Program-made: the position numbers and the translations under genes
Part shown: positions 3,876 to 18,079 of the stretch, one piece after another
How positions within the stretch are numbered: position 1 is the stretch's first letter
How the letters are laid out: the number at the start of each line of letters is the position of its first letter
Virus record (IMG/VR): IMGVR_UViG_3300031525_000002
Direction: 5' to 3' (one strand)
DNA: 20,000 nucleotides
Source: an uncultured virus (IMG/VR IMGVR_UViG_3300031525_000002)
Lineage: Duplodnaviria; Heunggongvirae; Uroviricota; Caudoviricetes
Notes under the pieces: generated by a model
What the model was told of the DNA's origin: nothing
Seen by the model: the letters and a program-made list of their open reading frames with translations, nothing else
Database searches by the model: none

Positions 3876-4661
3876 ATGACCGTCGCCATCAGCGTGATAG
3901 TGCCATCGATGGGGCAGGCGAAGTACCTCCCCGAGGCGCTTGCGAGCATCCGTGGGCAAACTTTCGCCGGTGATGTGGAGGTCGTCGTCGCCGCTGGCAC
4001 GGAGGCGGAAGCGAGTCTCGCGCGTGCGCTGGGCGTCGTCGCAGTGGTGGACGGTTGCGACCGAGGCCCGGGTGACGCACGGAATCGGGCCATCGATGTG
4101 GCCACGGGCCCGTACATTCTGCCGCTCGACGCCGACGACGTGCTCGAGCCGATGTGCCTTGAGCTCTTCATGAGTCACGCGGACGACAACACCATCGTCT
4201 CGTCCTCGACGAAGTCGTTCGGGATACGCAACTCCGTGTGGGTCCTGCCGCCCTTTGACAAGGTCCTCGAGATGAACCCGCTCAGTACGGCGTCGCTCTT
4301 CCCGCGGAAGATGTGGGAACAGGTTGGCGGGTTCGACGTGGGGCTCGGGTACGAGGATTGGGACTTCTGGGTGAAATGCAGCAAGCTACAGCCGCAGGTC
4401 GTGCAACTCCGGGAAACGCTCCTTCGCTACCGCGTGCACAGCGAGAGTGCGATGGCGCGCATCGACGCGGAGCGGCTCGATCCGCTGTATCGAGCGATGC
4501 TGCGACTGCGTCACCCGGACTGCTATGCGGGCAATGAGCCGCGAGACCAGGAGACGGTCGCGAGAATGTCGCCCCAAGTCTATCGTCGCCTCATCGAGCG
4601 TCTCCGTGCTTTCCCGGACAATGCTGCGCTGCTAGCCTTCAAGGCCATGGTGTTCTCGTGA
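3876..4661 (+). CDS. family 2 glycosyltransferase (GT-A)
   Basis: MTVAISVIVPS, ARNRAI, YILPLDADD, VGGFD, YEDWDFW, YRVH. Confidence 0.92.
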   Translation: MTVAISVIVPSMGQAKYLPEALASIRGQTFAGDVEVVVAAGTEAEASLARALGVVAVVDGCDRGPGDARNRAIDVATGPYILPLDADDVLEPMCLELFMSHADDNTIVSSSTKSFGIRNSVWVLPPFDKVLEMNPLSTASLFPRKMWEQVGGFDVGLGYEDWDFWVKCSKLQPQVVQLRETLLRYRVHSESAMARIDAERLDPLYRAMLRLRHPDCYAGNEPRDQETVARMSPQVYRRLIERLRAFPDNAALLAFKAMVFS

Positions 4662-5260
4662 GACCCGACGCGCCTGAAGAGATCGTGGCGAAGCGCATCC
4701 CGCCGAGCGGCGACAGCGACTGGCACCCGGAGATTCTCGGGTGGTCGGGCGGCATCCACGAGTTCTACGGGAAGATGGCGGTCGAGTTCGCGTCGGACGC
4801 GAAGTTCGTGGAGCTCGGGGTCTACAAGGGGCGGGGCATCCTCTGGTTGGCGTGCAAGCTGCGCGAACTGGGCAAGCTTGACGTGCAACTCGTGGGCATC
4901 GACGATGGCGTCTACTACGACAGCCACGGCGAACTCATGCGCAACGTTGCCGCTGTGACGGACGGCTGGGGCGAGCGGCCCGCCGTGGAGATACGCAGGA
5001 TGCGCGGGCGCGACGCCGCCCCCAGCTACCCCAACGGGTCGCTCGACTGCGTGTTCATCGATGCCGACCACTCGGCGGACGCGGTCTACCAGGACATCGT
5101 CACGTGGCTGCCGAAGGTGAAGCAAGGAGGGGTGCTCGCCGGACATGACTACGCACACGTCGACTGCCCAGGCGTGAAGGTGGGCGTCGATCGCTTCTTC
5201 GGCCAGGGGCGCGTCACGCTGGACCCGGACACGATTTGGCGGGTGCGGGTCGGCGCGTGA
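4658..5260 (+). CDS. class I SAM-dependent methyltransferase (Methyltransf_24-like)
   Basis: VELGVYKGRG; FIDADH; DIVTWLPKVKQGGVLAGHDY; GTGA overlap with GT2 stop. Confidence 0.9.
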   Translation: MRPDAPEEIVAKRIPPSGDSDWHPEILGWSGGIHEFYGKMAVEFASDAKFVELGVYKGRGILWLACKLRELGKLDVQLVGIDDGVYYDSHGELMRNVAAVTDGWGERPAVEIRRMRGRDAAPSYPNGSLDCVFIDADHSADAVYQDIVTWLPKVKQGGVLAGHDYAHVDCPGVKVGVDRFFGQGRVTLDPDTIWRVRVGA

Positions 5261-5448
5261 GCAAGTCGTGCGATACGTGCCTCTCGTTCCTGCACGACAC
5301 CGCGCAACACGACGGGCTCTGTAAGGAACCGATGACGTACAGGTGCTCGGCGGGCGCAGCGTGCATCTTCCACGAGCACAATGCCGCATGCGATAGACCG
5401 CGCGAGCACGAAGGGGCGCACGACTGCATGGAAAGCTACGTGATGTGA
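5257..5448 (+). CDS. small Cys/His-rich putative Zn-binding protein (63 aa)
   Basis: GTGA overlap with MTase stop; CDTC...C...C...C...CDRPREHEGAH. Confidence 0.55.
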   Translation: MSKSCDTCLSFLHDTAQHDGLCKEPMTYRCSAGAACIFHEHNAACDRPREHEGAHDCMESYVM

Positions 5449-5588
5449 TGCCCGAAGGGCCGTACCGAACGTCACCACGAGGCCCCGTACGCGTCATGTC
5501 GTGCGATCCTCCGTGCGACTGGTCGCCGAAAGATTGGACTGCGGCGGGACGCGCATGCTTCGCATCAGGCCCACGGACGACACGCTCG

Positions 5589-5786
5589 TCATCGTGGCTG
5601 GAATTGCCCATCTGGAGTCGTGCCCGACGGTGCCTCGCGGCACCTGAGCTCGCTCTCCAGCCACTCGCTCGGGTACGGCGAGCACTGGTGGCAGAGCATG
5701 TGTCGCAGCTGCTCGACGGTGAAGGTGTGGAGGTCGTGCGGTCGCACGCCCGTCGCCCAGATTGCGGTGGCTTCGGCGCGCGTCAT
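5589..5786 (-). CDS. small hypothetical protein (65 aa)
   Basis: ATGA overlap with stop of the 5783 gene; MTRAEATAIWATG... Confidence 0.5.
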   Translation of the reverse strand: MTRAEATAIWATGVRPHDLHTFTVEQLRHMLCHQCSPYPSEWLESELRCREAPSGTTPDGQFQPR

Positions 5787-6073
5787 GACGCCCACTCCGA
5801 GCCGACGAGGCGGCCGTCGCGAATCGCGCAGGCTTCCTCGTGGCGGTGGATGAACTCGCGTCCTTCAGGCGTGACTACGTACGCGAGCACGGGGCGACGC
5901 CCGAAGACGTTCTCGGTGTCGCCGAAGCGCGAGGGGCGAAGGTAGCCCAGCCGGAGCAGCTTGCTGATGGCGGCCCGGTCGAGCCGGTCGTGGTCATGCG
6001 GGTTGGGCATGTCATCGAAGTCGGCGAGGATGTCGTACAGGACGGAGGCGGAGAGGCGGTGCGGCTTGCTCAT
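5783..6073 (-). CDS. hypothetical protein, possible winged helix (96 aa)
   Basis: MSKPHRL start at 6073; AAISKLLRLGYLR...YVVTPEGREF resembles the wHTH recognition helix/wing and TxxG pattern. Confidence 0.6.
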   Translation of the reverse strand: MSKPHRLSASVLYDILADFDDMPNPHDHDRLDRAAISKLLRLGYLRPSRFGDTENVFGRRPVLAYVVTPEGREFIHRHEEACAIRDGRLVGSEWAS

Positions 6074-6114
6074 ATGAGAAAGACGCGGGGGGAGGCGGGT
6101 TCTGACAGAGACGA

Positions 6115-6990
6115 TCAGAATGCCCGATGCCGCTCCCAGAACGCCCTGTCGAGCATCGCCCCCCGCGTCCCGCTGAAGCTGGTGGCGCCCACGTGCTCGA
6201 GCGGCGCCCCTTCGCCAAGGTAGAGGTGCAGGCGGCCGCCCATCGCGCGCCACCGGTCACAGAAGGCCACGTCCTCCATGGTGAACACGCGTCGCTCGAG
6301 GCCCGTGTGAAAGAGGCCGACGTGCTCTTCATGTACCGGCTTGCCGTCGTCGTCGAGCCAGTCCTTGTCGTACCGGAGCGAATCCTTGTAGTGGGCCGTC
6401 ATCTTCTCGAAGACCTCGCGCTTGATGAGCGCGAACCCGAAGGGGACGTGACGCGGCATCTCCGCGATTCCGTCGGCGCCGACCTCCCCGAGGACCTCGC
6501 AGCGGAAGTCGGGCACGTACCGAACGGTGTAGCCGCGTAGGATCTCACCGAGTTCCTCGGCGGTGACCTCGGGGTGCTCGCGCAGGTGCTCGATGGCCTT
6601 CTGCGCCCCTTGGACCCAGTGTCGTGACTTCTGGATGTACGGGACGGCGATGATCGGCTTATCGGCCTTGAGGAGGCGCGTGAGCAGAGGCGCGATCTGG
6701 CCGGAGGTCGTCGGCTTCACGTCCGAATCCCATAGGAGCGCGTGCGTGTACTGCCGCGGGTGCGCCAAGAAGAGGCGAACCAGGTTGTTGCGCGCGTGCT
6801 CGATGCAGTTGGGGTACGGCTGCGGGTCGAGCTCGACCGAGCCCCCGTCCCACGACTTGTCGTCGCAGATCACGTCGAGTTGCTTGCCGAGTTGGTAGAG
6901 GGTACCGGCGATGGCGCGGCTGAGGCCGGCGGCTTCGCTGTCACCGTATAACGGCAGAAGCGCGCAAATTCGGAAGTTGGCCATCGTCAC
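6115..6990 (-). CDS. GT-A fold glycosyltransferase-like protein (phage-type)
   Basis: ARNNLVRLFL, ALLWDSDV (DxD), FGFALIKREVFEKM, EDVAFCDRWRAMGG, LEHVG. Confidence 0.8.
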   Translation of the reverse strand: MTMANFRICALLPLYGDSEAAGLSRAIAGTLYQLGKQLDVICDDKSWDGGSVELDPQPYPNCIEHARNNLVRLFLAHPRQYTHALLWDSDVKPTTSGQIAPLLTRLLKADKPIIAVPYIQKSRHWVQGAQKAIEHLREHPEVTAEELGEILRGYTVRYVPDFRCEVLGEVGADGIAEMPRHVPFGFALIKREVFEKMTAHYKDSLRYDKDWLDDDGKPVHEEHVGLFHTGLERRVFTMEDVAFCDRWRAMGGRLHLYLGEGAPLEHVGATSFSGTRGAMLDRAFWERHRAF

Positions 6991-7602
6991 TCACCCCGAC
7001 CTCGCCTTGAACGCCTCCCGAGCGGCCGTATGCCCCCCGAGCGACTGGATGCGGGTGAAGTCGTCAGATCCCGCTCCGTACTTCCGAATGAACGCGAACC
7101 ATGGCGCGTCCGCTACGCGGCGCTCCTCGTCACGCGCGCGACGCTCGGCCGCCTCACGATCCCGAGTCGCCTCGCGCTTCTCTGCGCTCGCCTTACGCTT
7201 CGCCTCGAGCCCGGAGACCGCCTCCGACGAGAAGCTCGCCTCGCCCGGATCGAACATGCGCCCGTGGTTCTTCCCCGAGCACTGGCACTCGCAGGTAAAG
7301 CCGGTCGATGACGTGCACTTCGCGGAGCACACCTCCTTCGCGCTGTACCGCCCACGGATCTCGGTGGCCCGGCGTGGCTTGTGGCACTGGCGGCAGTCGA
7401 TGACGAAGGCCCCCTCGACGTTGAGGTGCGGCGCGCCCTTCGGCTGCGCGTAGACGTAGACGTTGCTGCCCTGAGGCGCACGGCGCGCCTCGTCGGCGCT
7501 CGAGGTGCGGCTCGTGGCGATGCCACACGCCTTGCACTTGGCGATCCAGCGGCAGCGCTTGAGGAGGACCGGGCCGGGTAAGGTGGTACCGATGAGGCTC
7601 AT
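6991..7602 (-). CDS. MSLIG-tagged Cys-rich Zn-binding protein (array gene 17)
   Basis: Starts MSLIG; CKAC, CRQC, CSAKC..G..CECQCSGKNHG; charged helical C-terminal part. Confidence 0.8.
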   Translation of the reverse strand: MSLIGTTLPGPVLLKRCRWIAKCKACGIATSRTSSADEARRAPQGSNVYVYAQPKGAPHLNVEGAFVIDCRQCHKPRRATEIRGRYSAKEVCSAKCTSSTGFTCECQCSGKNHGRMFDPGEASFSSEAVSGLEAKRKASAEKREATRDREAAERRARDEERRVADAPWFAFIRKYGAGSDDFTRIQSLGGHTAAREAFKARSG

Positions 7603-7832
7603 CGCTGCACCGGTGCGGCCTTGATGACCTTGCCTCCTCGCCGGTACGTCTCCTGCTGAATCGCAACGATGGCACTGCGAGGTGCGAAGACGCGGACGTA
7701 GAGGAACGGGCGCTTCGGTTCACCCGTCTGGTACCCTTGACGCTCACACCACTCGCGGAACGCCTCCGCTTCGTACGTGGCGCCGAATTCGCTCAGGCAG
7801 TGCCACGGGCGGTCCATGAGGCCACCGTTCAT
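7599..7832 (-). CDS. hypothetical protein (array gene 16), starts MNGGLMD
   Basis: ATGA overlaps at both ends. Confidence 0.7.
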   Translation of the reverse strand: MNGGLMDRPWHCLSEFGATYEAEAFREWCERQGYQTGEPKRPFLYVRVFAPRSAIVAIQQETYRRGGKVIKAAPVQR

Positions 7833-8467
7833 CGGGACACCACGTCGCGCTTCGCGCGCCCCAGAGGGTCCCGCTCGGACGTGGGGTACGTGAACACGCG
7901 GTGGGGTCGGTCGGAACTCTGCTCGGCCGCATAGGCGCGCGCCTTGGCGAGGTCCTTCGCGTCACCCCGGTTCTTCCACATCGCCGCCCGTGGCACGCGG
8001 ACCGTCTTGAAGGTCGGCAGGCGCCACGTGGACCCCTCGCGCTCGACCTGCTGCTCCTCGGTCGTCCACGCGAGGACGATCTTCATCTTCGCTGGCTCTA
8101 GCGGCTCGCGCGCCTCACGCTTCTCCTCGGCCTCGATGAACGCCTCGCGCGCCATCTGCTCGCGGTGCTCGCTGGCGTCAGGCGTCCGCACGCGTGGAGC
8201 CCGAGGCGCCGTCGGCGCCGCCTCGCGCTCGTTGAGTACCCGGACCGCCCACGCGCACGCCGACGCTGCTGTGGAGCCGTACGGACCCGCTGCGTGCTCA
8301 ATCCACCTGCGCTTGCCGGTCCGCTCGACCGAGCCCATGAAGACGCCCGACTGCTCGACGCGCCATGACCGCTTGCAGACCGGAGACGCGCCTCGGTCGG
8401 GGATGAGCGTCAGGATGCCGTGCGTGATCGTCTCACGCGGGTCGGGCTTGCGTCCGATGAGGCTCAT
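7829..8467 (-). CDS. MSLIG-tagged hypothetical protein (array gene 15)
   Basis: Starts MSLIGRKP; ATGA overlaps; shares SWxVExxGxFMGSV module with 9449..10267. Confidence 0.8.
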   Translation of the reverse strand: MSLIGRKPDPRETITHGILTLIPDRGASPVCKRSWRVEQSGVFMGSVERTGKRRWIEHAAGPYGSTAASACAWAVRVLNEREAAPTAPRAPRVRTPDASEHREQMAREAFIEAEEKREAREPLEPAKMKIVLAWTTEEQQVEREGSTWRLPTFKTVRVPRAAMWKNRGDAKDLAKARAYAAEQSSDRPHRVFTYPTSERDPLGRAKRDVVSR

Positions 8468-8829
8468 CGCACGCGCTCCTCATCCTCGGCCTTCCGGTAC
8501 TCCTCCATCTCCTTGGCGTACTCGCGCATACGACCGGCGGCGTACTCCGACCACCCATCGGCCCAAGCGTCGTGGAGGCGTCGCTTCTGCGCAGGTGTGG
8601 CCGTCACACCGGTCGGCATGTAGTCGTCGACGTCGGGCGGCGACCCCTGGTCAAGGAGCCACCGCTTGATCGCAGCAGCGGAAGGCGTCTTGCCGACCTC
8701 CTCCGCGATCTCGGCTGGACCCATGGTGTTGCCTGCGTCCTGGCGCCCGGTCGTCCGCCAGAACGGAAGCTCCTTCACGAGCTCGGTCTCCGTGAGCGTG
8801 CGCGAGGGGGGCTTGCCGATAAGGCTCAT
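8464..8829 (-). CDS. MSLIG-tagged hypothetical protein (array gene 14, 121 aa)
   Basis: Start re-set to ATG 8829 (MSLIGKPP), overlapping the upstream TGA as ATGA. Confidence 0.8.
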   Translation of the reverse strand: MSLIGKPPSRTLTETELVKELPFWRTTGRQDAGNTMGPAEIAEEVGKTPSAAAIKRWLLDQGSPPDVDDYMPTGVTATPAQKRRLHDAWADGWSEYAAGRMREYAKEMEEYRKAEDEERVR

Positions 8830-9452
8830 CGCAGCGCCTCCACGGGCAGGAAACGAACCCGAGCGCCGCCACCCATGACGGTGACGGTGTCGCCCCGGTC
8901 GGCGCGCCTGAGGGCGGCCAGGTCGGTTGCCGACAGGCTCTCGCGGTTGTCGCGGATGAAGGTGACGAGGCCGCATTCCCCCTCGTCACCCCGGTCGGAC
9001 CGCCAGTGCACCGGGAGGTCCTGGGCGCCTTTGGCAAACGCCTTGACGGCGGGGGCGAGGGTTCGGTGGCCTTCCGAGGTGATGCGCCCGTCCTCAACGA
9101 CGTAGAAGCCACCGCTTGAGGCGATCCCGATCTGACCCCGGCGAGAAAAGCCGAGCGTCACATTGTAGCGCAGGCCCGTACCATTTGTTCCTGGGATGGC
9201 CGTCACCGTTGGCTTGGCCGAAGGAGCCTTGTAGAGCCCGTGCGTCTTGAGTGCGCGCTCCTCGGTCTGGCGACGCTCGCGGCCCTCGCGACGGGCCTCG
9301 GCGCGCTTGCTCCTGGCCACCCACGCCGGCACGGCCCCCATCTTCGCGAGGTTCTCGTGTGCGCGCGCGACCTCGAGAGCCTGCGCTTCCACGCGCCGAC
9401 GGTAGGCGATGTTCGACTGCTCGGCTTCGGGCAATTTGCCGATGAGGCTCAT
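8826..9452 (-). CDS. MSLIG-tagged hypothetical protein (array gene 13)
   Basis: Starts MSLIGKLP; basic helical N-half, beta-rich C-half. Confidence 0.8.
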   Translation of the reverse strand: MSLIGKLPEAEQSNIAYRRRVEAQALEVARAHENLAKMGAVPAWVARSKRAEARREGRERRQTEERALKTHGLYKAPSAKPTVTAIPGTNGTGLRYNVTLGFSRRGQIGIASSGGFYVVEDGRITSEGHRTLAPAVKAFAKGAQDLPVHWRSDRGDEGECGLVTFIRDNRESLSATDLAALRRADRGDTVTVMGGGARVRFLPVEALR

Positions 9453-10267
9453 GCGCCACCCAGCCGGTACATCTCGTCGCTCGAGCCGCGAATCTCCTTC
9501 GCGCCCGACCCAGGACGGTCCCAGACGCGGCCGTTGTAGCTTACGTGTCCGATGACCTTGCCGGAGGCGTCACGGATGTCCCCGCCCGTCCAGTTACCAC
9601 CCCCGAGCTCGTTCTTGGTGATGAACTGCTGCACGACGCTGGACGCCTCCAGGTAGCTGGTGACGGGAACCCGGTGCGAGCGAATCGAGACGGAACCACG
9701 ATGGTCGCTCGAGTAACTGGAGTGGGTGAAGTCGGGGTTCGGCTCGGCAGCGAGCTCCACGGACCAGTTGCCCGACTCCGCCCCGCGCGACTCCTTCGCC
9801 TTGAGGTGCGCCTCGAGCAGTTCCGCAGCTCGGCGGCACACGAGGACTCGCCAGGTCGGAAAGGCTTGCCCAGACCGCCCCCCTTCGCCCCCGTTCGGGT
9901 CGAGGGACCATCCGTTGTACGGGATCGCGTTCACGTGACGCCGGGGGGGCGCGCCCCGCTTGACGCTGCCCATGAATTCGCCGTTCAGTTCGACGAGCCA
10001 CGACCCCTTGTTGGGCTGAAGCATCATGAAGTTGCCGTCCGTCAGCACCTTCGTCGAGTAGGGGGCGATGTGCAGGGGCGAGCCGGGGACGTTCGCGGGG
10101 ATCGACGCCTTCGCGCGCCGTGGGCGCTTCGGAGGCGTGGCGTAGGGGTCGGCCATGTGCGCTCGGAGGTCGGCCCGGCGCTCCGCGTCCGTCCGCTGGG
10201 TCCGCTGGGGCTTCGGCGCGGGCCGGTCGAAGAGCGATAGCGATGTCGGCTTGCCGATGAGGCTCAT
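9449..10267 (-). CDS. MSLIG-tagged two-domain hypothetical protein (array gene 12)
   Basis: Starts MSLIGKPTSLSLFDRPAP; C-terminal GNWTGG...HVSYNGRVW domain. Confidence 0.82.
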   Translation of the reverse strand: MSLIGKPTSLSLFDRPAPKPQRTQRTDAERRADLRAHMADPYATPPKRPRRAKASIPANVPGSPLHIAPYSTKVLTDGNFMMLQPNKGSWLVELNGEFMGSVKRGAPPRRHVNAIPYNGWSLDPNGGEGGRSGQAFPTWRVLVCRRAAELLEAHLKAKESRGAESGNWSVELAAEPNPDFTHSSYSSDHRGSVSIRSHRVPVTSYLEASSVVQQFITKNELGGGNWTGGDIRDASGKVIGHVSYNGRVWDRPGSGAKEIRGSSDEMYRLGGA

Positions 10268-10761
10268 GGCGACCTCGGCATCACATAGGCCACCCCATCA
10301 ACGACGTAGCCACCCTTGACCACGCCACCGATGCGCTTGGCAGCGCGGGCCATGGTGTCCTTGGAAATGCACGCCTCGACAACACGAGCATCGTCGCGAC
10401 GAGATGTCATCGCGAAGAAGATGAACTGAGCCCGGTTGAACCCGCGAACGCTCGCGGCAGCATCGGGAAACATCTGATGCGCGCGAGCGCCTGCTGGCAC
10501 ATTGGCGGGGACGTTCGCGGCGGGCGCGGGAGCCTGGCGAGCCGGGCTCGGGTGCTTGTCTCTGGTGAGACCGCACTGGAAGCACTTGTCTGAGCCGCCC
10601 GGCATGCGGTCGAACCGATGTGTGACGGGTTCGGCATCCATGGTGGCCATGAGCGCCCGGTACGCGGCTCGACTCCCAGGCTTCGGCGCGGTCGGCGCGG
10701 GCGCGGGCCTGTCGAAGAGCGACAGCGATGCCGTATCCTTGGGCTTGCCGATGAGCGCCAT
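10264..10761 (-). CDS. MALIG-tagged hypothetical protein with small HxF...CxxCG...H Zn finger (array gene 11)
   Basis: Starts MALIGKPKDTASLSLFDRPAP; HRF...CFQCGLTRDKH. Confidence 0.8.
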   Translation of the reverse strand: MALIGKPKDTASLSLFDRPAPAPTAPKPGSRAAYRALMATMDAEPVTHRFDRMPGGSDKCFQCGLTRDKHPSPARQAPAPAANVPANVPAGARAHQMFPDAAASVRGFNRAQFIFFAMTSRRDDARVVEACISKDTMARAAKRIGGVVKGGYVVDGVAYVMPRSP

Positions 10762-11096
10762 CAGTACCCCTTCATACCGCGAAAATGCGCTGCCTGCTCG
10801 CGAAGTCCCTTCGCCCGCAGTTCGGACGGTTCGAGGCGCGCAGCTTCGTCGAGCAGGTCAGCAGCACGGTTGTTCTTGGCCGCGCTCAAGCCCATGTCGT
10901 CGGCTGCTGCGTTCGCTGCGACCATGGCCACGCTTGTCGCGTGGTCGGCCTTGCTGCGCCGCTCGTCCGCCGCCCGCCCCTCGGAACTGCGCGACCACGC
11001 CTCGGAGGCCCGGTCCTCGGCGGCGAGCCCCGCACGGAGCTTGCGCCCCATGTCGCGCTCCTCGGCGGTGGGACCCTTGCGTCCGATGAGGCTCAC
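10761..11096 (-). CDS. MSLIG-tagged Ala/Arg-rich helical protein (array gene 10)
   Basis: GTG start GTGAGCCTCATCGGA; TGATG overlap downstream. Confidence 0.78.
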   Translation of the reverse strand: MSLIGRKGPTAEERDMGRKLRAGLAAEDRASEAWSRSSEGRAADERRSKADHATSVAMVAANAAADDMGLSAAKNNRAADLLDEAARLEPSELRAKGLREQAAHFRGMKGY

Positions 11097-11647
11097 GTCC
11101 GCCTCCCCGCCGCAGCCTTGCGCTCGCGCGCGCGTCGCTTCGCGTCACGGTACTCCCGCGCCTCGAAGCCGGTCCTCGGTCGGTAGTCGCGATCGCGAAC
11201 CGGTTCGCCGAGTTCGGAGTAGAGCGGGATCGACGCGCGGCTTGTGAATGAGCGACCGCCTTGGTAATTCGAGGAACGCTCGTACTCGACGCCGCCCCAC
11301 CGTCCCACCGCTTCGCCCATCCGGATATTGCTGTACTGCGTGCCCATGCGCCGGGTGGTGATCGTCCCGTGCGTGAGCAGCATGCGCGCCTCGATGGCAG
11401 CGGGGTCCAACTTGTCCTCGAGAAGCCCGATGGCGATGCGGTCGAGCGGCCCGCCCGATGGGCGCGCGTAACCCAACCACGTCTCGATGCCGTCGCTGCC
11501 GGCGGCGCGATAGAGTTCCACGCGGCCGCCTCGGAACCGGATGGCGACGTACTTCCGTCCCCGGTAGGTGAATTCCTTGCGCGCGAGCTTGGGGGCGTCG
11601 TGGAGAGGGTCGTGGGGAGCGCGAGGGAAGCGACCGATGAGGCTCAT
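11093..11647 (-). CDS. MSLIG-tagged Arg-rich hypothetical protein (array gene 9, 184 aa)
   Basis: Start re-set to ATG 11647 (MSLIGRFP), ATGA overlap. Confidence 0.8.
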   Translation of the reverse strand: MSLIGRFPRAPHDPLHDAPKLARKEFTYRGRKYVAIRFRGGRVELYRAAGSDGIETWLGYARPSGGPLDRIAIGLLEDKLDPAAIEARMLLTHGTITTRRMGTQYSNIRMGEAVGRWGGVEYERSSNYQGGRSFTSRASIPLYSELGEPVRDRDYRPRTGFEAREYRDAKRRARERKAAAGRRT

Positions 11648-12012
11648 GGCGTCCTCCGAAGATGCGTGAGGCCGGGATTGTACTTCGTGTCCCAGTCGCC
11701 GTGCTCGATGCGGAAGCTCGGCGAACCGCGCAACTCGTAGGCTTCGCCACCGTAACCGCGACTCCCCACCTTCCACGGGAACAGGTCGTTCTGTCCGTCG
11801 GACACCTTGAACATGCCGGTGACATGGCGGCCGCTCAAGCGACGAACGATGGCGACAGCGCCCGACTTGCTCTTGGAGAACCCGACCCGGTTGTACGCCG
11901 CGAGGTCCTCGGGATCGCTGTGCGTGGCCCAGACGCCCCACCCGCGCTGGATAGACGTGGGAGCGAACGTGAAGGCGACCTTGGAGTAGCCGCTACCGCC
12001 GATGAGACCCAT
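11644..12012 (-). CDS. MGLIG-tagged hypothetical protein (array gene 8)
   Basis: Starts MGLIGGSG; TAATG overlap with upstream gene. Confidence 0.78.
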   Translation of the reverse strand: MGLIGGSGYSKVAFTFAPTSIQRGWGVWATHSDPEDLAAYNRVGFSKSKSGAVAIVRRLSGRHVTGMFKVSDGQNDLFPWKVGSRGYGGEAYELRGSPSFRIEHGDWDTKYNPGLTHLRRTP

Positions 12013-12395
12013 TACCCGCGCCTCGCTTTCGCCGCCCCAGCGTCCACGTACTCGTGAAACCGACGGATCGCACGCGTGACCTCTGCGTCGGCGGCGGGCA
12101 GTTCGTCGCGATGGTACGCCTCAGCGTAGTGCTTCGCCTTGAACGCCCTATCCTTCTCCTGCTCGAGCCGCTGGAGCTCGGGGTCGTTCCACATCGAGGC
12201 GTAGTACGCCTTCTCGCGCACAGCGCTCTGAATCTCACCGGGCGAGCGACCGAGAATCGCGCCCGTGCGGATGCGGTAGTCGAGGTCAGTCTCCCCGTGA
12301 CGATGCTCGATCGCCTTCCGGCATTTCACGCAGTAATTCTTCGACCCGCGGATCTTGTTGCCGCAGTAGCAGGTGCCGGAGATGAGCGTCGTCAT
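12012..12395 (-). CDS. Zn-ribbon protein with degenerate tag MTTLISG (array gene 7, 127 aa)
   Basis: ATG 12395 in ATGA overlap; CYCG..x..YCVKC. Confidence 0.75.
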   Translation of the reverse strand: MTTLISGTCYCGNKIRGSKNYCVKCRKAIEHRHGETDLDYRIRTGAILGRSPGEIQSAVREKAYYASMWNDPELQRLEQEKDRAFKAKHYAEAYHRDELPAADAEVTRAIRRFHEYVDAGAAKARRG

Positions 12396-12598
12396 TTTCG
12401 CCCGAACTTCCCCTGGTCGAGCAGCCCGTACTGCTGATTGAACAGCGAAAACTGCTCGGCGGGTGGCGGTGGCGGCTTGGGACGCGTCTCCATGCCGGCG
12501 AAGAGTGCGGGCGTGCGCGCGCATGCCGAGCAAAGCTTACGGTTCTTCTGCGGGCGGTGGCACCCGGGGCACTTGTTCTTCACGCCGATGAGACTCAT
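12392..12598 (-). CDS. MSLIG-tagged small Zn-finger protein with QFSLF motif (array gene 6, 68 aa)
   Basis: ATG 12598; CPGC...CSAC; poly-Pro then EQFSLF. Confidence 0.75.
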   Translation of the reverse strand: MSLIGVKNKCPGCHRPQKNRKLCSACARTPALFAGMETRPKPPPPPAEQFSLFNQQYGLLDQGKFGRK

Positions 12599-12807
12599 CC
12601 GAGCAACCTTCCTTGTCTGCCGCCATCGTCCGTGACGAGCGCCTCGCGGTACGCCCACCCACGCTCACCGTTGTCCCAGTGAATGAGCGCGCGGCCAGGT
12701 CCAGCGACCTGGTCGACGGTGCCCTTGGCGTCGGCCGACACCGCTACGCCCGTCACCCGGAGCGAGTACGCAGCGCAGACGCGGTCACCGCGACGCAGGC
12801 GTCTCAT
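12595..12807 (-). CDS. small SH3/KOW-like beta-barrel protein ending GRLLG (array gene 5)
   Basis: LRRGDRV...GTV...ALIHWDNG pattern; ATGA overlaps both sides. Confidence 0.7.
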   Translation of the reverse strand: MRRLRRGDRVCAAYSLRVTGVAVSADAKGTVDQVAGPGRALIHWDNGERGWAYREALVTDDGGRQGRLLG

Positions 12808-13220
12808 CCGAGCAATCCTCTCCGGGGCTTCCCGATCTCAGAGTCTCGCACGTTGATGACCGCGTCGAGCGATGCCTTCGGATAGTCGACGAGCGCATCG
12901 TAGACCATATCGCTCCACGTCAGATACGTCGTGTGCCCCTCCGGCCCCTTGTGCGACACGCGCGTTACACGCCACTTCCGCGAGGTCGGGTCGATGGAGA
13001 ACCAGAGCTTGCGCGCGACGTATGGGCCTTTGGAGGCGTCGCCCGTCAGTATCTCGAAGGTCGCCTCGCCGTGGAGCCTGCGGAAGCGCCCCACAGCTCG
13101 CTTGCGGTTCGTCGCGTTGACGTGCACCGCCTTGAAGATGAGCTTGCCGTCTGCGCCGCGAACGGGCGTGTGACCGCGCTCGTCCAGCGGGTACGCCTGC
13201 CGCCACGCGCCGAGGCTCAT
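12804..13220 (-). CDS. hypothetical protein, starts MSLGA, ends RGLLG (array gene 4, 138 aa)
   Basis: ATG 13220 in ATGA overlap. Confidence 0.75.
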   Translation of the reverse strand: MSLGAWRQAYPLDERGHTPVRGADGKLIFKAVHVNATNRKRAVGRFRRLHGEATFEILTGDASKGPYVARKLWFSIDPTSRKWRVTRVSHKGPEGHTTYLTWSDMVYDALVDYPKASLDAVINVRDSEIGKPRRGLLG

Positions 13221-13477
13221 CCGATGAGCCCCTTCTTCGCGGGCGGCTTCCACCCCTTCTCCCACGTCACAGCAGGGAGGCCCGCGACTCGCCCGACGCG
13301 GTAGGTCCACATGAGACCGGCCGAGGCAAGACGAATGCGGCAGCCCGACGGTAGGTAGGCGGCGGTCCGCAGTGCGAGCTCGGCCGCGCCTTCGCCACGC
13401 GAAGTGACCGTGTAAGTGTCTCCACGCGTCCCGTCCGCGAGGTAGACCTGAACCTTCACGCGCTGTCCGTCGTACAT
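13217..13477 (-). CDS. hypothetical protein ending KGLIG (array gene 3, 86 aa)
   Basis: ATG 13477 (MYDGQRV) in TGATG overlap. Confidence 0.7.
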   Translation of the reverse strand: MYDGQRVKVQVYLADGTRGDTYTVTSRGEGAAELALRTAAYLPSGCRIRLASAGLMWTYRVGRVAGLPAVTWEKGWKPPAKKGLIG

Positions 13478-14052
13478 CAGATGAGCCCTTCGAACGCGTG
13501 AGGTTCCTCGTAGACCGGCGTAGTGACGGTGCGCCACTTCGCGTGGGGGTCGCAAAGCTCCTTGACCCGGTACCGGTTCGGCTCGGCACATGGCACTTCG
13601 ACCGAGCGGCCCGAGCGAAGGAGTGACGACCCCATCCACTTCGGGCGCCTCTTGCGGGGCGTCTCAGGGTTGCAGGCGGCCTTGGTGCGGAACCGCCACG
13701 GGTCGCGGCAGGGGACGGCCACGGCGGCGGCGTTCAGCTTGGTGCGGACCAATTCCGTAGCCTTCGCCTCCGCCGCCTTCGAGCGCTGGTGCGTCGCTTC
13801 GCGGGCGTTCGCCTCGAGCCACTCACGAAAGAGCTCGGCCTTATGGTCGGGGGTGCCCGTGAAGCGCATCCGCCCGTGCTCATCCTTGGCGTAGCGGTTC
13901 TTCCGCCAGAGAGCGACCTCCCACGGGTCCAGGTTCGCCTCCACGCGCTCCTGGGCCTCGGCGCGGTGTTCGGCACCACGAAGGTAGCCGGTGCGACGAC
14001 GCTCCTCGGCGGCAAAGTCGGTGGGCTTGGACTTGGGGCCGATGAGGCTCAT
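13477..14052 (-). CDS. MSLIG-tagged hypothetical protein, also ends EGLI (array gene 2)
   Basis: Starts MSLIGPKS; two VPCxxPxR[FY]R segments. Confidence 0.8.
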   Translation of the reverse strand: MSLIGPKSKPTDFAAEERRRTGYLRGAEHRAEAQERVEANLDPWEVALWRKNRYAKDEHGRMRFTGTPDHKAELFREWLEANAREATHQRSKAAEAKATELVRTKLNAAAVAVPCRDPWRFRTKAACNPETPRKRRPKWMGSSLLRSGRSVEVPCAEPNRYRVKELCDPHAKWRTVTTPVYEEPHAFEGLI

Positions 14053-14405
14053 GAGCGCTTCAGGTCCTTGTAGCCGCCGCTGGCCGTCCAGTAGCCGATG
14101 TTCGTGTCGCGCCTTCGGGCGCGCATGGTGAGTTCCTCCGGCCCCATCCCGTCACGCTGGAGCCCGGCTACGTCGGCCTCGCTGTGCTCGTAACCGTTCC
14201 GGATGAGGATCTCGCGCATCTCGTCGCGCTCGCGCTGCTCTGCGGACCGGACGGCGGTTGACGACCGCTCTCCACGTCTCCAACGCCGACCTCTCTGACC
14301 GCTTTCGGTAGCGTCTCGCGCGCGCGCATCCTGCAGGCGACGGAACTCGCCTAGCTTGCGGACGGCCTCCTCATTGGACAGGGGCTTGCCACCGATGAGC
14401 GCCAT
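14049..14405 (-). CDS. MALIG-tagged Arg-rich protein (array gene 1)
   Basis: Starts MALIGGKP; first gene of the coupled array. Confidence 0.78.
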   Translation of the reverse strand: MALIGGKPLSNEEAVRKLGEFRRLQDARARDATESGQRGRRWRRGERSSTAVRSAEQRERDEMREILIRNGYEHSEADVAGLQRDGMGPEELTMRARRRDTNIGYWTASGGYKDLKRS

Positions 14406-14423
14406 GGGTCAAAATGGTACCAG
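14406..14423. promoter_or_regulatory. putative leaderless (possibly bidirectional) promoter of the array
   Basis: Minus strand TGG-TACCAT (extended -10, 14414-14422) 8 nt before ATG 14405; plus strand CAAAAT 8 nt before ATG 14424. Confidence 0.4.
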
Positions 14424-14651
14424 ATGAACCCACACACCGTCACCTTTCTCGCGCGCGCCGCTGCCTTCGAACTGTCCACCCGCCTGGGTGGACTGGCCCC
14501 ACCGGACCAGCAAAGCCGAGAGGCGGAACTGGAACGCTTGTGGGAACTCGTGCCGGAAGACGAGGAAGTGTTCTGCTACTGCGCGCGACGCGCCCCGGTC
14601 ACTGGAGCGTCGGCGGCTCTGCCGGGTCTTCCGGCGTGCTTCCGTCAGTAG
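14424..14651 (+). CDS. small hypothetical protein divergent from the array
   Basis: Fills the gap between minus-strand genes; protein-like composition; 3' end overlaps 14599 gene. Confidence 0.4.
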   Translation: MNPHTVTFLARAAAFELSTRLGGLAPPDQQSREAELERLWELVPEDEEVFCYCARRAPVTGASAALPGLPACFRQ

Positions 14652-15318
14652 GCGCGGGCGGCAGGGCGGGAGGCGGAGCAGGGGGAAGCGCCGGGGTCGC
14701 CTTCGTCCCAAAGAACAGGTACCCGAGGAGCGCGCCGATGGCGACGCCGGGAAGGCCCCCGATGGCACCGCCAATCGCTGCGCCGAGGGCAGCCATGGCG
14801 ATGGAGTTGTCTTGCTCTGGGGGTGCAGCGGGCGCGGGGAGCGCCAGATGAGCCGACGCCGCTTGGACAGCGGGGGCCGCCACTGGACCGGCGGCCGCGT
14901 AGTGGTGATGGTGGACGTGGACCTCGCCGATGTTGATCTGGACACCCGGCTTGGTGTCCGCCGGAGGCGGGATGAACTCGGCGTGCCACTCTTCCTGCGC
15001 GGGCTCGGGAGGTCGTAGCGACACCAACGACTCTGCCTGGGCCGCCTCGTAGTCGGCCAAGAGCTTGTCGATGACCTTGCGGACCTCGCGCTCCTTGAGG
15101 CGGGCGACGGTCTCGTCGAGGAAGATCTGCGCCCGAACCTCCGGGGGGACGGGGTCCTCCCAACCGCCCGTAGGCGGCGCTCCTGGTCCAGATGGGCCTG
15201 GGGGTGGCGTGACGGGAAACGGGATGAAGTCGCGGTCGATCCACCCGGACACGTCGGCGGACACGTCCATCCACGTCGCGTGGTAGCCATCGACATCCCA
15301 AGACCCGAGGCGCGCCAT
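14599..15318 (-). CDS. Pro-rich membrane protein with glycine-zipper TM segment
   Basis: ALGAAIGGAIGGLPGVAIGALLGYLFF; Pro-rich linkers. Confidence 0.72.
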   Translation of the reverse strand: MARLGSWDVDGYHATWMDVSADVSGWIDRDFIPFPVTPPPGPSGPGAPPTGGWEDPVPPEVRAQIFLDETVARLKEREVRKVIDKLLADYEAAQAESLVSLRPPEPAQEEWHAEFIPPPADTKPGVQINIGEVHVHHHHYAAAGPVAAPAVQAASAHLALPAPAAPPEQDNSIAMAALGAAIGGAIGGLPGVAIGALLGYLFFGTKATPALPPAPPPALPPAPTDGSTPEDPAEPPTLQ

Positions 15319-15330: not shown

Positions 15331-16323
15331 TTACTCCAGCCAGCGGCGATTCGCGGGGTCGGCGATCCAGCGGACCGTCTGCTGGAGGCTTTCTTCGAAC
15401 GGCTTCGGGATGTGCCACCCCATCGAGGCGAGCTTCTCGCCCGAGAGCGCATACCGGAGATCGTGCCCAGGTCGGCTCTGATGAAAATTCACCAGATCGT
15501 AGTCGGGACGACGCCCGAGGATCTCGCCGATGAGCTTCACCATGTCCTCGTTAGTGATCTCGCGCTCACCCACGATGTTGTAGCGCTCGCCCGCCTCGCC
15601 GCGCTCGAGGAGGAACGTCACCGCCGAGGCGACGTTGCGCGCGTGGATGTAGAAGCGCGAGCCGGACCGCGTGAGGTCGGGGTTCGCGTGGACGAGGATC
15701 TTCTCACCCGCAAGCGTGCGCTTGACGATGAGCGGCACCCATTTCTCTCTGTGCTGTCGCTCGCCGATCACGTTCATCGTCGAGCTCACGAAGACCGGCA
15801 GCTTGTACGTGTTCGCCCACGCCGCGCAGAGTTGGTCACCGGCGCTCTTCGTTGCCGCGTATGGGTTGTTCGGCTTGTGACGATCCCACTCCTTGTACCG
15901 GACCCCGTCCGGCGCCGGCCCGAACACCTCATCCGTCGAAAAGTAGAGCATCTTCTGGAGGCGCGTGAGCCCGCGCGCCCACTGGAGCATCCGGTACGTC
16001 CCCACGACGTTGCTCTGGATGAAGGGCCACGGATCCTCGATGGAGTTGTCCACGTGGGTTTCGGCGGCCATGTGCACCACGTAGTCGGGCTCCCCGAGCT
16101 CGTGACGGAGCCCCGACCCGAACTCGTGCGTCATGTCGGCGGTGAAGATGTGGACGCGCCGGTCATCGAACGCCTGAATGTCGCGGAGGCGGTCGAAGCC
16201 GCTCGAGGCATACGTGAGGCGGTCGAGGACCGCGATGTCCCAGTCGGTCGTCTTGAGGATGTGCTCGACGAGGTGCGCACCGATAAAGCCGGCACCGCCG
16301 GAGATGAGGATTCGCGTGGTCAT
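15331..16323 (-). CDS. rmlB: dTDP-glucose 4,6-dehydratase (NAD-dependent epimerase/dehydratase)
   Basis: MTTRILISGGAGFIG, HMAAETHVDNSI, STDEVFG, YAATK, RPGHDLRYAL; start at 16323 in TAATG overlap. Confidence 0.92.
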   Translation of the reverse strand: MTTRILISGGAGFIGAHLVEHILKTTDWDIAVLDRLTYASSGFDRLRDIQAFDDRRVHIFTADMTHEFGSGLRHELGEPDYVVHMAAETHVDNSIEDPWPFIQSNVVGTYRMLQWARGLTRLQKMLYFSTDEVFGPAPDGVRYKEWDRHKPNNPYAATKSAGDQLCAAWANTYKLPVFVSSTMNVIGERQHREKWVPLIVKRTLAGEKILVHANPDLTRSGSRFYIHARNVASAVTFLLERGEAGERYNIVGEREITNEDMVKLIGEILGRRPDYDLVNFHQSRPGHDLRYALSGEKLASMGWHIPKPFEESLQQTVRWIADPANRRWLE

Positions 16324-16682
16324 TACATGCCCCGTTCGCCACCGGCTAGCAGGGATGCCTCGTCTTCGTCGCCGCCAGTTCCTGCAGCGTGCACATCGAT
16401 CAGTGGAGCGTCCAAGACGCGCGCGAAGACACGGTACTCCTCCGTGTCCAGACGCTCGGCCCACAGCTTGGTCAGCGCCTCAAACGAGAGAGCGCCGGTC
16501 GAATCACGGTCGACCGGCTCGTCGCCCGTGTCCGAAACCTCCAATTCGTCCTGCATCATCAGCCGCAGCGCGGCAATGGCAAGTGCGCGTGACGAATAGA
16601 CGCCAGCCGGACCAGGAGCAGCCTCATCGTCATTGCTCCAAACGCCTCCGGGAGACTCGACGATGTAAAGCGTCATCGTCAT
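16323..16682 (-). CDS. acidic hypothetical protein
   Basis: Overlapping start/stop both sides; LYIV...GVYSSRALA pattern. Confidence 0.7.
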   Translation of the reverse strand: MTMTLYIVESPGGVWSNDDEAAPGPAGVYSSRALAIAALRLMMQDELEVSDTGDEPVDRDSTGALSFEALTKLWAERLDTEEYRVFARVLDAPLIDVHAAGTGGDEDEASLLAGGERGM

Positions 16683-17056
16683 CGGGCACCCTCGTAGTTG
16701 AACGCATGCGCGATCCCCTTCGCGAGCTTGTCGAGGAGCCCGTCACGACCCCCTTCGTACGACTCCGCGTTCAGCGCCTTGTCGAGTGCGGCCTTGACGA
16801 TGGCATCGAGCTTCGCCCGAGCCTCCGGTTGCGCGAGCTGCTCCGTGACGACCTTGCGAGCGGCCTGCTCCATCGCGTCCGCGAAGAGCTTGCCCAGCGG
16901 ACTCTCAGTCCGACCCGAGTAACTGCTGTAACGCGTCGCCAGCAGGCTTGAGATCGCCGTCGCGAAGAGTTCGTCGCGCTTCTCCGGCGTGAGGCTGTCG
17001 AGGATCGTTTTGGCGACGAGAGTTTGCAGATGGTCTGCGGACAACTGCATCGTCAT
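16679..17056 (-). CDS. helical hypothetical protein (125 aa)
   Basis: ATG 17056 (MTMQLSAD) in ATGA overlap. Confidence 0.72.
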   Translation of the reverse strand: MTMQLSADHLQTLVAKTILDSLTPEKRDELFATAISSLLATRYSSYSGRTESPLGKLFADAMEQAARKVVTEQLAQPEARAKLDAIVKAALDKALNAESYEGGRDGLLDKLAKGIAHAFNYEGAR

Positions 17057-17283
17057 GGCGTCACCGGCTTCTCTTCTTTCCGAACGGTGATAGCGAGGTC
17101 CGCGTGCGCGTTGCAGCGGCTGCAGATGATGAGGCACCCAAGCATGTCGTGGTTGAAGGGACTCACCGATGGTAGGTCCCAACGGTGACCCTCCAGCGCG
17201 CACCACTCCTTCTTGATCGCCTCTTCCTTGGCGAGGAGTGCCGCCTTGCCCGCCGCGAGCTCGTCCTTACTTCGCGCTACCAT
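17053..17283 (-). CDS. small Zn-binding protein (C-x4-H-x-W...CxxC)
   Basis: MVARSKDE...WCALEGHRWD...CSRC. Confidence 0.65.
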   Translation of the reverse strand: MVARSKDELAAGKAALLAKEEAIKKEWCALEGHRWDLPSVSPFNHDMLGCLIICSRCNAHADLAITVRKEEKPVTP

Positions 17284-18079
17284 TCGGAGCCTCCGAACGA
17301 CCCAGATCAACGGCAGGCGGTGGAACCATCGGTTCCTTCGGCGTTGTCGAGTCAGGCTGCGGCAGCCTCTTGAGCTTGGCGACCCAGTCCGCCGTGACGT
17401 TCCAGAGGTGGATGTAGCGGTACTGGAGCGCCTCTGGGCTCTTCGTGCCCTCCTCCGCCATGAACGTCGGATTGACGTCGAAGTTGAAGTTGGCCGTCAC
17501 GCGGTAGTGAGCGAGCCCGTTCATCTTCCGCCAGTCGTGGTTGAAGTAGAGGAACGTCTGCTGCATGAAGAACCGGCGGTGCGTCGGGTCCCAGAACGCG
17601 CGGTCCGACCGGCCCGATGGAACGACGATGTTGATGAACGCGTCGACCTTGAGGATCCGGTAGACCTCGTCCATGAAGGCGAAGAGCATGTCGGCGCCGA
17701 GGTACTTCGCTCCTCCAAGGTCCACGTCGCCAATGCCCTTGAGGATGTCGCTCTCCACGACCTCGCGCGCCGGCACGTGCTCGAGGAAGTGAGAGCAGTT
17801 CATCTCGTCGACCGAGTTGTCCGCCCACGGCCACGGGAACTTGAAGAGGTCGACCTTGTGCTTCGCCTTCTCCCCGTAGAGGTCGACACCCTCGTGTCCC
17901 TCCTTCGGGTTCTGCCCACATCCGAGGTCGAGCTTGAGCATGCTGCGCGAGGCAGCCTCTACGAGAGTAGGCGCGACGAGCCCCAGCGCCGTCTTGGGAG
18001 ACAGATCCTTGTCGACCTGAGCGGACAGCGCCTTGAGCCGGTCGTACTCCTCTTTCGAGATGGAAACGTGTTCGCTCAC
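17267..18079 (-). CDS. class I SAM-dependent methyltransferase (Methyltransf_11-like)
   Basis: KLDLGCG, DNSVDE, HFLEHV, EVYRILK, WDPTH; GGAGG SD before GTG. Confidence 0.85.
   Translation of the reverse strand: MSEHVSISKEEYDRLKALSAQVDKDLSPKTALGLVAPTLVEAASRSMLKLDLGCGQNPKEGHEGVDLYGEKAKHKVDLFKFPWPWADNSVDEMNCSHFLEHVPAREVVESDILKGIGDVDLGGAKYLGADMLFAFMDEVYRILKVDAFINIVVPSGRSDRAFWDPTHRRFFMQQTFLYFNHDWRKMNGLAHYRVTANFNFDVNPTFMAEEGTKSPEALQYRYIHLWNVTADWVAKLKRLPQPDSTTPKEPMVPPPAVDLGRSEAPNGSAK

Follow-up and report, generated by a model that had tools for sequence, protein, structure and literature searches.

We describe here an array of 17 consecutive minus-strand genes, g1 to g17, in a stretch of 20,000 nt of DNA from an uncultured virus (IMG/VR record IMGVR_UViG_3300031525_000002; 'the window' below means this whole stretch). 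The array runs from position 14405 down to position 6991, and 12 of its genes begin with the same five residues, M-[S/A/G]-L-I-G, referred to as the tag. Judged from sequence comparisons, the tag looks like a selected, portable and lineage-specific module carried on otherwise unrelated protein bodies. With a confidence that comes close to an even call, we read it as a short docking motif to one shared partner, possibly for loading into the capsid as in the internal proteins of phage T4.

The tag and the operon that carries it

The initial annotation had reported M[SAG]LIG starts for 12 of the 17 array genes, and all 12 coordinates were found to be exact when compared with the open reading frame (ORF) listing and the sequence. 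Searching the window with the DNA pattern RTGNNNCTYATCGG gave 13 matches, all on the minus strand, versus 0.03 expected, and none of 200 shuffled sequences reached 13, so that the tag is clearly enriched over background. The 13th match (15527-15540) encodes an internal V-K-L-I-G in an epimerase gene, and the statement that no tagged gene start lies outside the block therefore holds as well. From the residue frequencies of the array genes, the chance of at least 12 tagged starts among 17 is about 3e-50.

The 17 genes follow each other with zero intergenic space, as seen in the ORF listing and the sequence. Neighbouring genes overlap at each of the 16 junctions; the overlap measures 4 nt (ATGA or GTGA) at 13 of them and 1 nt (TGATG or TAATG) at the other three. 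Every array gene has the G+C pattern of coding DNA (GC3 0.76-0.88, GC2 0.47-0.58) in a window with a G+C content of 60-70%. The genes and their tags are as follows.

6991-14405, minus strand: 17-gene translationally coupled operon (stop-start overlaps, GC3)
14049-14405, minus strand: g1, first operon gene; tag MALIG (ATG GCG CTC ATC GGT) at 14391-14405
13477-14052, minus strand: g2; tag MSLIG at 14038-14052
13217-13477, minus strand: g3; start MYDGQ, no tag
12804-13220, minus strand: g4; start MSLGAW, no tag
12595-12807, minus strand: g5; start MRRLRR, no tag
12392-12598, minus strand: g6; tag MSLIG, with AGT for Ser, at 12584-12598
12012-12395, minus strand: g7; degenerate in-frame tag M-T-T-L-I-S-G at 12375-12395
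11644-12012, minus strand: g8; tag MGLIG at 11998-12012
11093-11647, minus strand: g9; tag MSLIG at 11633-11647
10761-11096, minus strand: g10; tag MSLIG, with GTG start, at 11082-11096
10264-10761, minus strand: g11; tag MALIG at 10747-10761
9449-10267, minus strand: g12; tag MSLIG at 10253-10267
8826-9452, minus strand: g13; tag MSLIG at 9438-9452
8464-8829, minus strand: g14; tag MSLIG, with CTT for Leu, at 8815-8829
7829-8467, minus strand: g15; tag MSLIG at 8453-8467
7599-7832, minus strand: g16; degenerate in-frame tag M-N-G-G-L-M-D at 7812-7832
6991-7602, minus strand: g17; tag MSLIG at 7588-7602

In an alignment of the tagged starts, high information content is confined to the block between the start codon and +13 (consensus ATG AGC CTC ATC GG). 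Upstream of this block only a G at -9 is conserved (11 of 12), which belongs to the ribosome-binding site, and downstream nothing aligns. Behind the tag a Lys or Arg occurs within residues 6-8 in 10 of the 12 tagged proteins (p 0.006) and a Pro within residues 6-10 again in 10 of 12 (p 7e-5); the positions of both vary, and the feature does not align at the DNA level. The codons vary synonymously, as had been noted: Leu is encoded by CTC in 11 tags and by CTT in one, Ile by ATC in all 12, and Gly by GGC in seven, GGT in three and GGA in two, while the start codon is ATG in 11 tags and GTG in one. Codon 2 is AGC in eight cases, GCG in two, and AGT and GGT in one each; it differs in its nucleotides but always encodes a small residue, and a palindrome ATGAGnCTCAT is broken in three Ala/Gly variants among the 12 tags. 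The restriction of position 2 to S, A or G is, as far as Ser is concerned, tied to the gene overlap: an ATGA overlap with the upstream stop forces a codon beginning with A, and Ser occurs only at starts of this kind, Ala or Gly at the others. The tag as such is not a by-product of stop-start coupling, since g1 is tagged although no upstream gene ends at its start. After removal of Met the N-termini of g9, g10 and g12 to g15 would read SLIGK.. or SLIGR.., as the mammalian PAR2 tethered-ligand peptides do over their first five residues; in a phage from peat we take this to be a coincidence.

The array proteins are basic, as had been expected of a cargo set, with pI values of 9.2-10.6 in 16 of 17 cases (g14, with pI 5.1, is the exception); all 10 flanking proteins are acidic (pI 4.1-6.2). 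An all-against-all BLASTP comparison supports the view that the bodies are largely unrelated: apart from weak low-complexity matches, it linked only g11 with g12, over their first ~20 residues (E 7e-7), and g12 with g15, over a patch of 18 residues. Curated Pfam and NCBIfam cut-offs were reached by none of the 17, and PHROGs gave no function for any of them, the matches of g17 to phrog_6842 (E 1e-8) and, weakly, of g14 to phrog_421 (E 0.009) being to families of unknown function. Cysteines are frequent in g17 (10) and number four each in g2, g6 and g7. The structural model of g2 (mean pLDDT 84) shows a helical bundle followed by two VPCxxPxR[FY]R[VT]KxxC knuckles, and its residues 1-10 have no secondary structure (mean pLDDT 63); a fold search with this model in PDB and BFVD gave no match at E <=0.001. 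For g12 the model is poor (pLDDT 46, with residues 1-25 below 50), and the resemblance of its C-terminal domain to small tailed-phage proteins in the ESM Atlas, at scores below 0.9, is a lead only. The array proteins are small and basic with a variable repertoire, and they are likely to bind nucleic acids, a class that fits packaged internal proteins and early host-takeover proteins alike.

Some array proteins have recognizable relatives. In its Cys-rich N-terminal half, g17 is distantly homologous to an uncharacterised Mycobacterium phage protein (phages Leston, Collard, Kratio and Feyre), as indicated by the phrog_6842 match and by tblastn at 27-29% identity (locus L122, 1504-1833). The g2 domain also occurs in forms of 250-480 residues (P0024, P0025, P0027 and P0028), which carry a Zn-ribbon at the N-terminus and, at the other end, a domain that closes with RGIEG or RGIVG. 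A distant g2 relative (36% identity) lies on a 312-kb IMG/VR contig (locus L245, 9050-10495), inside a 481-residue protein without a tag array. Right behind the tag, g11 and g12 read (A/T)SLSLFD (10700-10737 and 10209-10245), and the g12 orthologues P0003-P0005 read RQTSLFD. The binding motif of the bacterial beta-clamp is Q-L-x-L-F (PMC4549789; this and the papers cited below are described from the available part of their text), and g11 and g12 might, by this likeness, dock on the sliding clamp of the host.

Relatives of the tag and the structure of the gene junctions

We observed that M[SAG]LIG is kept in seven of seven close orthologues with an intact N-terminus, which lie on other contigs and represent three families, and that the adjoining residues diverge. 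Conservation in related genomes, one of the checks proposed for the tag, is thus found throughout this set. The g12 orthologues P0002-P0005 (53-74% identity) start with MALIG (three of them) or MGLIG (one), the g15 orthologues P0036 and P0037 with MALIG, and the g13 orthologue P0038 with MSLIG, so that position 2 differs (S, A or G) between orthologues. Among the more distant members of the g2 family (representatives sharing <=50% identity), MGLLA, MALLA, MGLLP, (V)GLLA, (V)SLLG, MGILA and MNFLG occur as called or likely starts, and several over-extended gene calls of this family contain (V)SLLG or a similar sequence at the matching place. The form of the tag in these distant relatives is M-[GAS]-[LI]-L-[AGP], and its changes are conservative (L/I/F, then L/I, then G/A/P).

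The remote homologues of the body domains do not carry the tag, a second point that had been put forward for checking. It is absent from all six remote homologues of the g12 C-terminal domain, the four long g2-domain forms with intact N-termini have a Zn-ribbon start in its place, and the Mycobacterium phage homologue of the g17 domain starts with MTLTIS. When 11 unrelated tagged proteins were combined into a single query profile, only four foreign proteins came up at E <=10.

The array itself was searched for at several levels. Its DNA had no match in GenBank phages and g2 had no protein match there; neither g12 nor the gene at 6115-6990 had a relative in IMG/VR, the g12 family had none in GTDB genomes, and a metagenome scan returned only the window's own contig (L121). 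A 14-mer was found at at least 120 IMG/VR loci, 119 with one tag-pattern start and one (L041) with two, with no array among the matches listed. A 20-nt pattern was found at two IMG/VR loci that are unrelated by BLAST and at at least 120 genome loci, none of which had more than two tag-like starts among the matches listed. Both the 11 IMG/VR loci found with a back-translated MGLLARK/MALLARK pattern and a background of 12 other viral loci of 4-20 kb had 0-2 relaxed tags each, versus 12 in the window. The scan for M[SAG]LIG clusters that the initial annotation had recommended therefore confirmed the enrichment in the window but gave no second array in IMG/VR among the matches listed. In the literature we found no description of such a tag by title or abstract, and none of the listed titles among the papers with the string 'MSLIG' was phage-related.

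A second feature became visible at the gene ends. Four consecutive genes, and no other array gene, end in a tag-like way (g2 EGLI, g3 KKGLIG, g4 RRGLLG and g5 GRLLG). At the corresponding junctions, g2/g3 to g5/g6, the octamer CTCATCGG (CTCATC(GG)) or TTGCTCGG stands directly before the ATGA and not after the start, and the genes after these C-terminal motifs, g3, g4 and g5, are the ones without a proper N-terminal tag. In the window CTCATCGG has 14 copies, all on the transcribed strand and 12 of them at array junctions; the octamer or a close variant lies within about 10 nt of the start codon at all junctions of g1-g15 and at g16/g17. The features concerned are given below.

13475-13488, minus strand: junction g2/g3, second type, GGGCTCATC TGATG; g2 ends E-G-L-I-stop, g3 starts MYDGQ
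13480-13488, minus strand: upstream copy of GGGCTCATC, a 9-nt direct repeat bracketing g3 (other copy 13223-13231)
13209-13231, minus strand: junction g3/g4, second type, GGGCTCATCGG ATGAGCCTCGGC; g3 ends K-K-G-L-I-G-stop, g4 starts MSLG without Ile
12803-12815, minus strand: junction g4/g5, TTGCTCGGATGAG; g4 ends R-R-G-L-L-G-stop; left copy of the 13-nt repeat around g5
12594-12606, minus strand: junction g5/g6, TTGCTCGGATGAG; g5 ends G-R-L-L-G-stop; right copy of the repeat, followed by the g6 tag
10215-10248, minus strand: 34-nt segment that follows the g12 tag (SLSLFDRPAP); 91% identity to 10700-10733, which follows the g11 tag

Relatives differ at these places. The g4 orthologues keep the MSLGAW start and end with RRGLLG, SGGLIG and RRGLLG; the second of these ends has the GLIG type in place of the GLLG type, from which it appears that junction types swap between relatives. 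The C-terminus of the g2 family reads HAFEGL[LIF], seven members ending with FEGLL, FAGLL(G), FEGLF or FDDLLYG, and the short g2 forms stop where the long forms go on (AFEGLL aligned with FAVLGxL). P0002, in a related contig, is a single protein consisting of the N-terminal part of g11 fused to the body of g12, and the 34-nt segment shared by g11 and g12 is, judged by its identity, a duplicated N-terminal module. From the direct repeats around g3 and g5, the g11/g12 copy, the P0002 fusion and the swapped g4 end we conclude that genes are inserted, split and fused at the junctions, and that the junction is copied in the process and spreads the tag. Junction duplication accounts for the origin of the tag, but not for its retention.

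A docking label and its alternatives

For the retention of the tag we propose that, together with the nearby Lys/Arg and Pro, it forms a short linear motif on a flexible N-terminal tail. The motif would lend a changing set of small, basic and mostly unrelated proteins one common property, most likely docking on a single partner. Removal of Met is expected with Ser, Ala or Gly at position 2, and the free end would then be [S/A/G]-L-I-G. In g3, g4 and g5 a tag-like G-L-[I/L]-G at the C-terminus would take the place of the N-terminal tag. Whenever a gene is inserted or split at a junction, the junction would be duplicated and the newcomer would inherit a working start together with the tag. The likeliest partner would be a component of the assembling head (capsid interior or scaffold), with a host hub protein as the alternative. 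The sequence data show the tag itself, its retention in relatives, its portability, its sharp limits, the basic cargo and the duplicated junctions; selection on the peptide, a common partner and the virion as this partner are what we infer. Within the docking reading, loading into the head is the leading candidate, by analogy, because the T4 capsid targeting sequence (CTS) is likewise found on diverse basic proteins, because the tag resembles encapsulin cargo peptides, and because the array is linked to a sugar-modification cluster (see below) that may, in our own view, serve virion glycosylation.

Several observations weigh against this reading. We found no capsid, scaffold, portal or protease gene in 20.8 kb of the contig, the range to which these negatives apply, and no member of an HK97-fold or encapsulin family among the 34 proteins of the window. 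The tag is much shorter than known targeting sequences; no T4-like cleavage motif is evident behind it, and no acidic residue is conserved there at a fixed position. The sequence is described equally well by 'one motif per junction' and by 'one tag per protein, at either end'. The K/R-G codons before the C-terminal motifs (AAGAAGGGG, CGGAGAGGA and GGAAGG) are purine-rich and double as the ribosome-binding site of the next gene, a sufficient reason for part of the K/R-G conservation at these ends. At the level of codons, CTC in 11 of 12 tags exceeds what plain codon usage predicts (p 0.02; in general CTC makes up 0.6 of Leu and ATC 0.83 of Ile codons), and GGG is absent at the Gly codon of the tag (p 0.02), the sole nucleotide oddity that is left. 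Twelve tags are too few for the synonymous sites of the window to decide between selection on the peptide and selection on the nucleotides.

A wider version of the docking reading seems to us somewhat unlikely. It holds that the terminal [S/A/G]-L-[I/L]-G with its basic-proline linker is a universal label, usable at either end, that would load at least 15 basic, Zn-finger-rich proteins into the head for co-injection, and that its DNA would be the crossover point for gain, loss, split and fusion of cargo genes in a phage that is probably large. If true, this would be a minimal, cassette-style counterpart of the T4 CTS and of encapsulin cargo loading.

Alternatively, the functional unit may be a nucleotide motif at the junctions (CTCATCGG with ATGAG on either side) that is read as DNA or mRNA, with the peptide as its by-product, which we consider unlikely. 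Such a motif might serve as a translational operator or a start-associated element, or else as a 'stoperator'-type repressor site within the coding sequence; as the operon has no intergenic space, a site of the last kind would have to be embedded in the genes. The confinement of CTCATCGG to one strand, with 12 of 14 copies at array junctions, agrees with this idea, as do the four junctions that place the octamer upstream of the ATG and out of frame for the downstream gene, the nearly invariant third positions of Leu and Ile, and the precedents of start-associated sequences in Cluster K and stoperators in Cluster A mycobacteriophages. However, the conserved block opens exactly with the start codon, closes at the second base of codon 5 and excludes the ribosome-binding site, unlike the start-associated sequences. 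Codon 2 takes four forms (AGC, AGT, GCG and GGT) that all encode a small residue, and the palindrome is lost in 3 of 12 tags. The third positions are those predicted by codon-pair usage: CTC-ATC encodes 12 of the 17 internal Leu-Ile pairs of the window and 11 of the 12 tags, which is no significant excess (p 0.09), so that the nucleotide identity of the tag needs no extra explanation. The distant relatives change conservatively at the amino-acid level, and the Lys/Arg-Pro feature is not aligned as DNA. A consistent RNA structure at the junctions was not found either, 16 of 17 junction folds having |z| <1.7, and Rfam gave 0 matches.

The only junction with significant structure is g3/g4, where a 55-nt fold reaches -35.0 kcal/mol (z -5.2). 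The g4 start codon lies here in the 3' arm of a 9-bp hairpin (GGGGCUCAU CGG AUGAGCCUC; window 13204-13240), and g4 may be translatable only via coupling to g3.

The initial annotation had argued that codon variation and the small residue at position 2 favour selection on the peptide. The variation is indeed there, but its weight is reduced by CTC-ATC being the usual internal Leu-Ile pair. Adding the conservation in orthologues, the conservative changes in distant relatives, the tag on g1, the unstructured tail of g2, the codon-pair usage and the non-aligned Lys/Arg-Pro feature, the evidence favours selection acting on the peptide, though not conclusively.

We judge it improbable to about the same degree as the nucleotide motif that the tag is a by-product of array growth, in which recombination at short homologies copies the junction and the tag persists as a proven, harmless translation start. 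The growth itself is supported by the direct repeats that bracket g3 (GGGCTCATC) and g5 (TTGCTCGGATGAG), the 91% identical g11/g12 copy with the fused P0002, the end swap in a g4 orthologue and the short g2 forms that end where the long ones continue, and repeated regulatory cassettes are described as drivers of gene shuffling in T4-type phages (PMC2839356). What such growth leaves unexplained is the retention of the tag, which is intact at 53-74% identity while adjacent residues diverge and undergoes only conservative change in distant relatives. Moreover, 14 nt are short for sustained gene conversion, and the basic residues and prolines that are enriched after the tag do not stem from copied DNA.

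Very unlikely, in our estimation, is an N-terminal processing or stability signal, in which an exposed [S/A/G]-L-I-G-K/R would be read by a protease adaptor, an unfoldase or a chaperone and would equalise the lifetimes of the array proteins, for example for a timed removal of early proteins. As such a signal would have it, no residue but Ser, Ala or Gly occurs at position 2 in any of the 12 tags or the seven close orthologues, and a hydrophobic pair is followed by a basic residue on a disordered tail, which is typical of N-terminal recognition signals of bacterial proteases and chaperones. Against it, the ATGA overlap by itself dictates Ser at position 2, and the C-terminal GL[IL]G of g3-g5 would remain unexplained. 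Three further ideas were dropped: pairing with 16S rRNA or mimicry of the initiator tRNA, a speculative idea; a Chi-like or restriction-related site, given that the motif is confined to the gene starts of one operon; and frameshift fusion into a polyprotein, which found no support.

Genomic setting and comparison with known systems

The window is the mid-part of a metagenome contig of 132,819 bp, and locus L121 comprises the window plus 549 and 267 bases. The stretch is present in 24 DNA sequencing runs from peat, with no RNA run listed. In four of those runs it is covered by mostly short contigs of low depth, and the pieces shown are identical; many others fit partially, with <90% likeness. 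A phage origin of the window is likely, since several flanking genes match PHROG families and the g2 domain occurs on the 312-kb IMG/VR contig mentioned above. Two features border the operon directly.

14406-14598, minus strand: gap of 193 nt upstream of g1, the sole non-coding space of the operon and its presumed promoter region
6115-6990, minus strand: glycosyltransferase-like gene (phrog_1574, E 5e-11), abutting g17 without a gap

Promoter- and terminator-like sites showed no excess over shuffled sequences, with one promoter-like and four terminator-like sites in 9.6 kb, and no Shine-Dalgarno-like sequence was found before the g1 start. A TACCAT hexamer (within 14406-14440) ends 8 nt ahead of the g1 ATG; it would suit a leaderless transcript, a form common in Actinobacteria. 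At the other end of the operon, the gene at 6115-6990 is probably in the same transcript as g17. Just upstream of the presumed promoter gap lies a gene (14599-15318) for a proline-rich acidic protein of pI 4.6 with a C-terminal hydrophobic segment of the glycine-zipper type (AALGAAIGGAIGGLPGVAIGALLGYLFFG).

The array is embedded in a sugar-modification cluster (1746-6990 and 15331-18878). The cluster genes encode a GT2 glycosyltransferase, a DXD glycosyltransferase, two more glycosyltransferase-like proteins, an NDP-sugar epimerase/dehydratase, three Methyltransf_24 proteins and one further methyltransferase; the glycosyltransferase-like gene at 18090-18878 has a PHROG hit only. The cluster may glycosylate virion proteins or DNA. 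Beyond it, an open-ended ORF (19036-19998) consists of repeats of ~35 residues (..NISAGTTSN..TF[AS]NSN[GN][IV]SFGLN..) that look like a beta-rich fibre, with no match in GenBank phages, Pfam, PHROGs or NCBIfam.

In our own rating the array is a candidate address-tagged, polymorphic cargo locus. Should the tag prove to be a docking label, just five residues would suffice to send any protein to a single site in the phage, possibly the head interior, and this would be the shortest such address known. Packaged or injected effectors of uncultured phages would become recognisable from sequence alone, and the label could be tried as a means of bringing foreign proteins into capsids. The array also shows how an accessory set can expand by junction duplication, a newcomer obtaining a label together with its working start. 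A motif acting as DNA or RNA instead would be the first start-associated repeat inside coding sequence.

Among known systems, the T4 CTS has about 10 or more residues and is removed by the prohead protease at a defined motif. The tag differs in having five residues and no evident cleavage motif and in the three genes with a C-terminal motif, and the array proteins have no sequence similarity to the T4 CTS or to internal-protein families in Pfam, NCBIfam and PHROGs. The likeness lies in the arrangement: the internal proteins of T4 are diverse, fast-changing, small and basic, are encoded side by side and have only the short N-terminal CTS in common (PMC3012670), and in the array 12 of 17 proteins are tagged and 16 of 17 are basic. 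Polymorphism of the T4 kind is also seen, gene content differing between relatives. A second parallel comes from the Family 1 encapsulins, whose cargo peptides (consensus SDGSLGIGSLKRS) are carried on flexible tails and attach to the inside of an HK97-fold shell (PMC8346489). These targeting peptides are usually C-terminal, but a ferredoxin cargo carries an N-terminal TVGSL motif (PMC8346489). The sequence S-L-I-G-K/R shares composition and partial order with SDGSLGIGSLKRS and likewise occurs at either terminus, a resemblance over five residues without an alignment; no encapsulin shell or capsid gene was found in the window.

At the nucleotide level, the start-associated sequence (SAS) of Cluster K mycobacteriophages is a 13-bp element with 11-19 copies in one orientation beside the starts of non-structural genes, described as of unknown function (PMC3203893). 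Like the motif described here, it is a short, asymmetric, ATG-associated repeat at the starts of many unrelated genes. The position differs: the SAS is found 3-7 bp ahead of the start codon and includes the ribosome-binding site with its AGGAG core (PMC3203893), whereas the present motif spans 0 to +13, is translated and has no ribosome-binding site. The stoperators of Cluster A phages, with 20-30 sites oriented with transcription, are similar in being many asymmetric sites of 13-14 nt (PMC6550527), and here 13 of 13 pattern matches and 14 of 14 copies of CTCATCGG are on the transcribed strand. They differ in being spread genome-wide and bound by the immunity repressor, as described in the same source, whereas the present motif belongs, within the 20 kb of the window, to one operon and always occupies codons 1-5. 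The PeSL cassettes of T4-type phages, finally, consist of a promoter and a terminator between genes (PMC2839356), in contrast to the array, where the repeat is coding and there is neither intergenic space nor an excess of such sites over shuffles. They resemble the junctions of the array in that small orphan genes are bordered by repeated junction sequences and shuffled through them (PMC2839356), much as direct junction repeats enclose g3 and g5. Whether the tag acts as a peptide or as a nucleotide motif, either outcome bears on why repeated motifs occupy gene starts in the variable regions of phage genomes.

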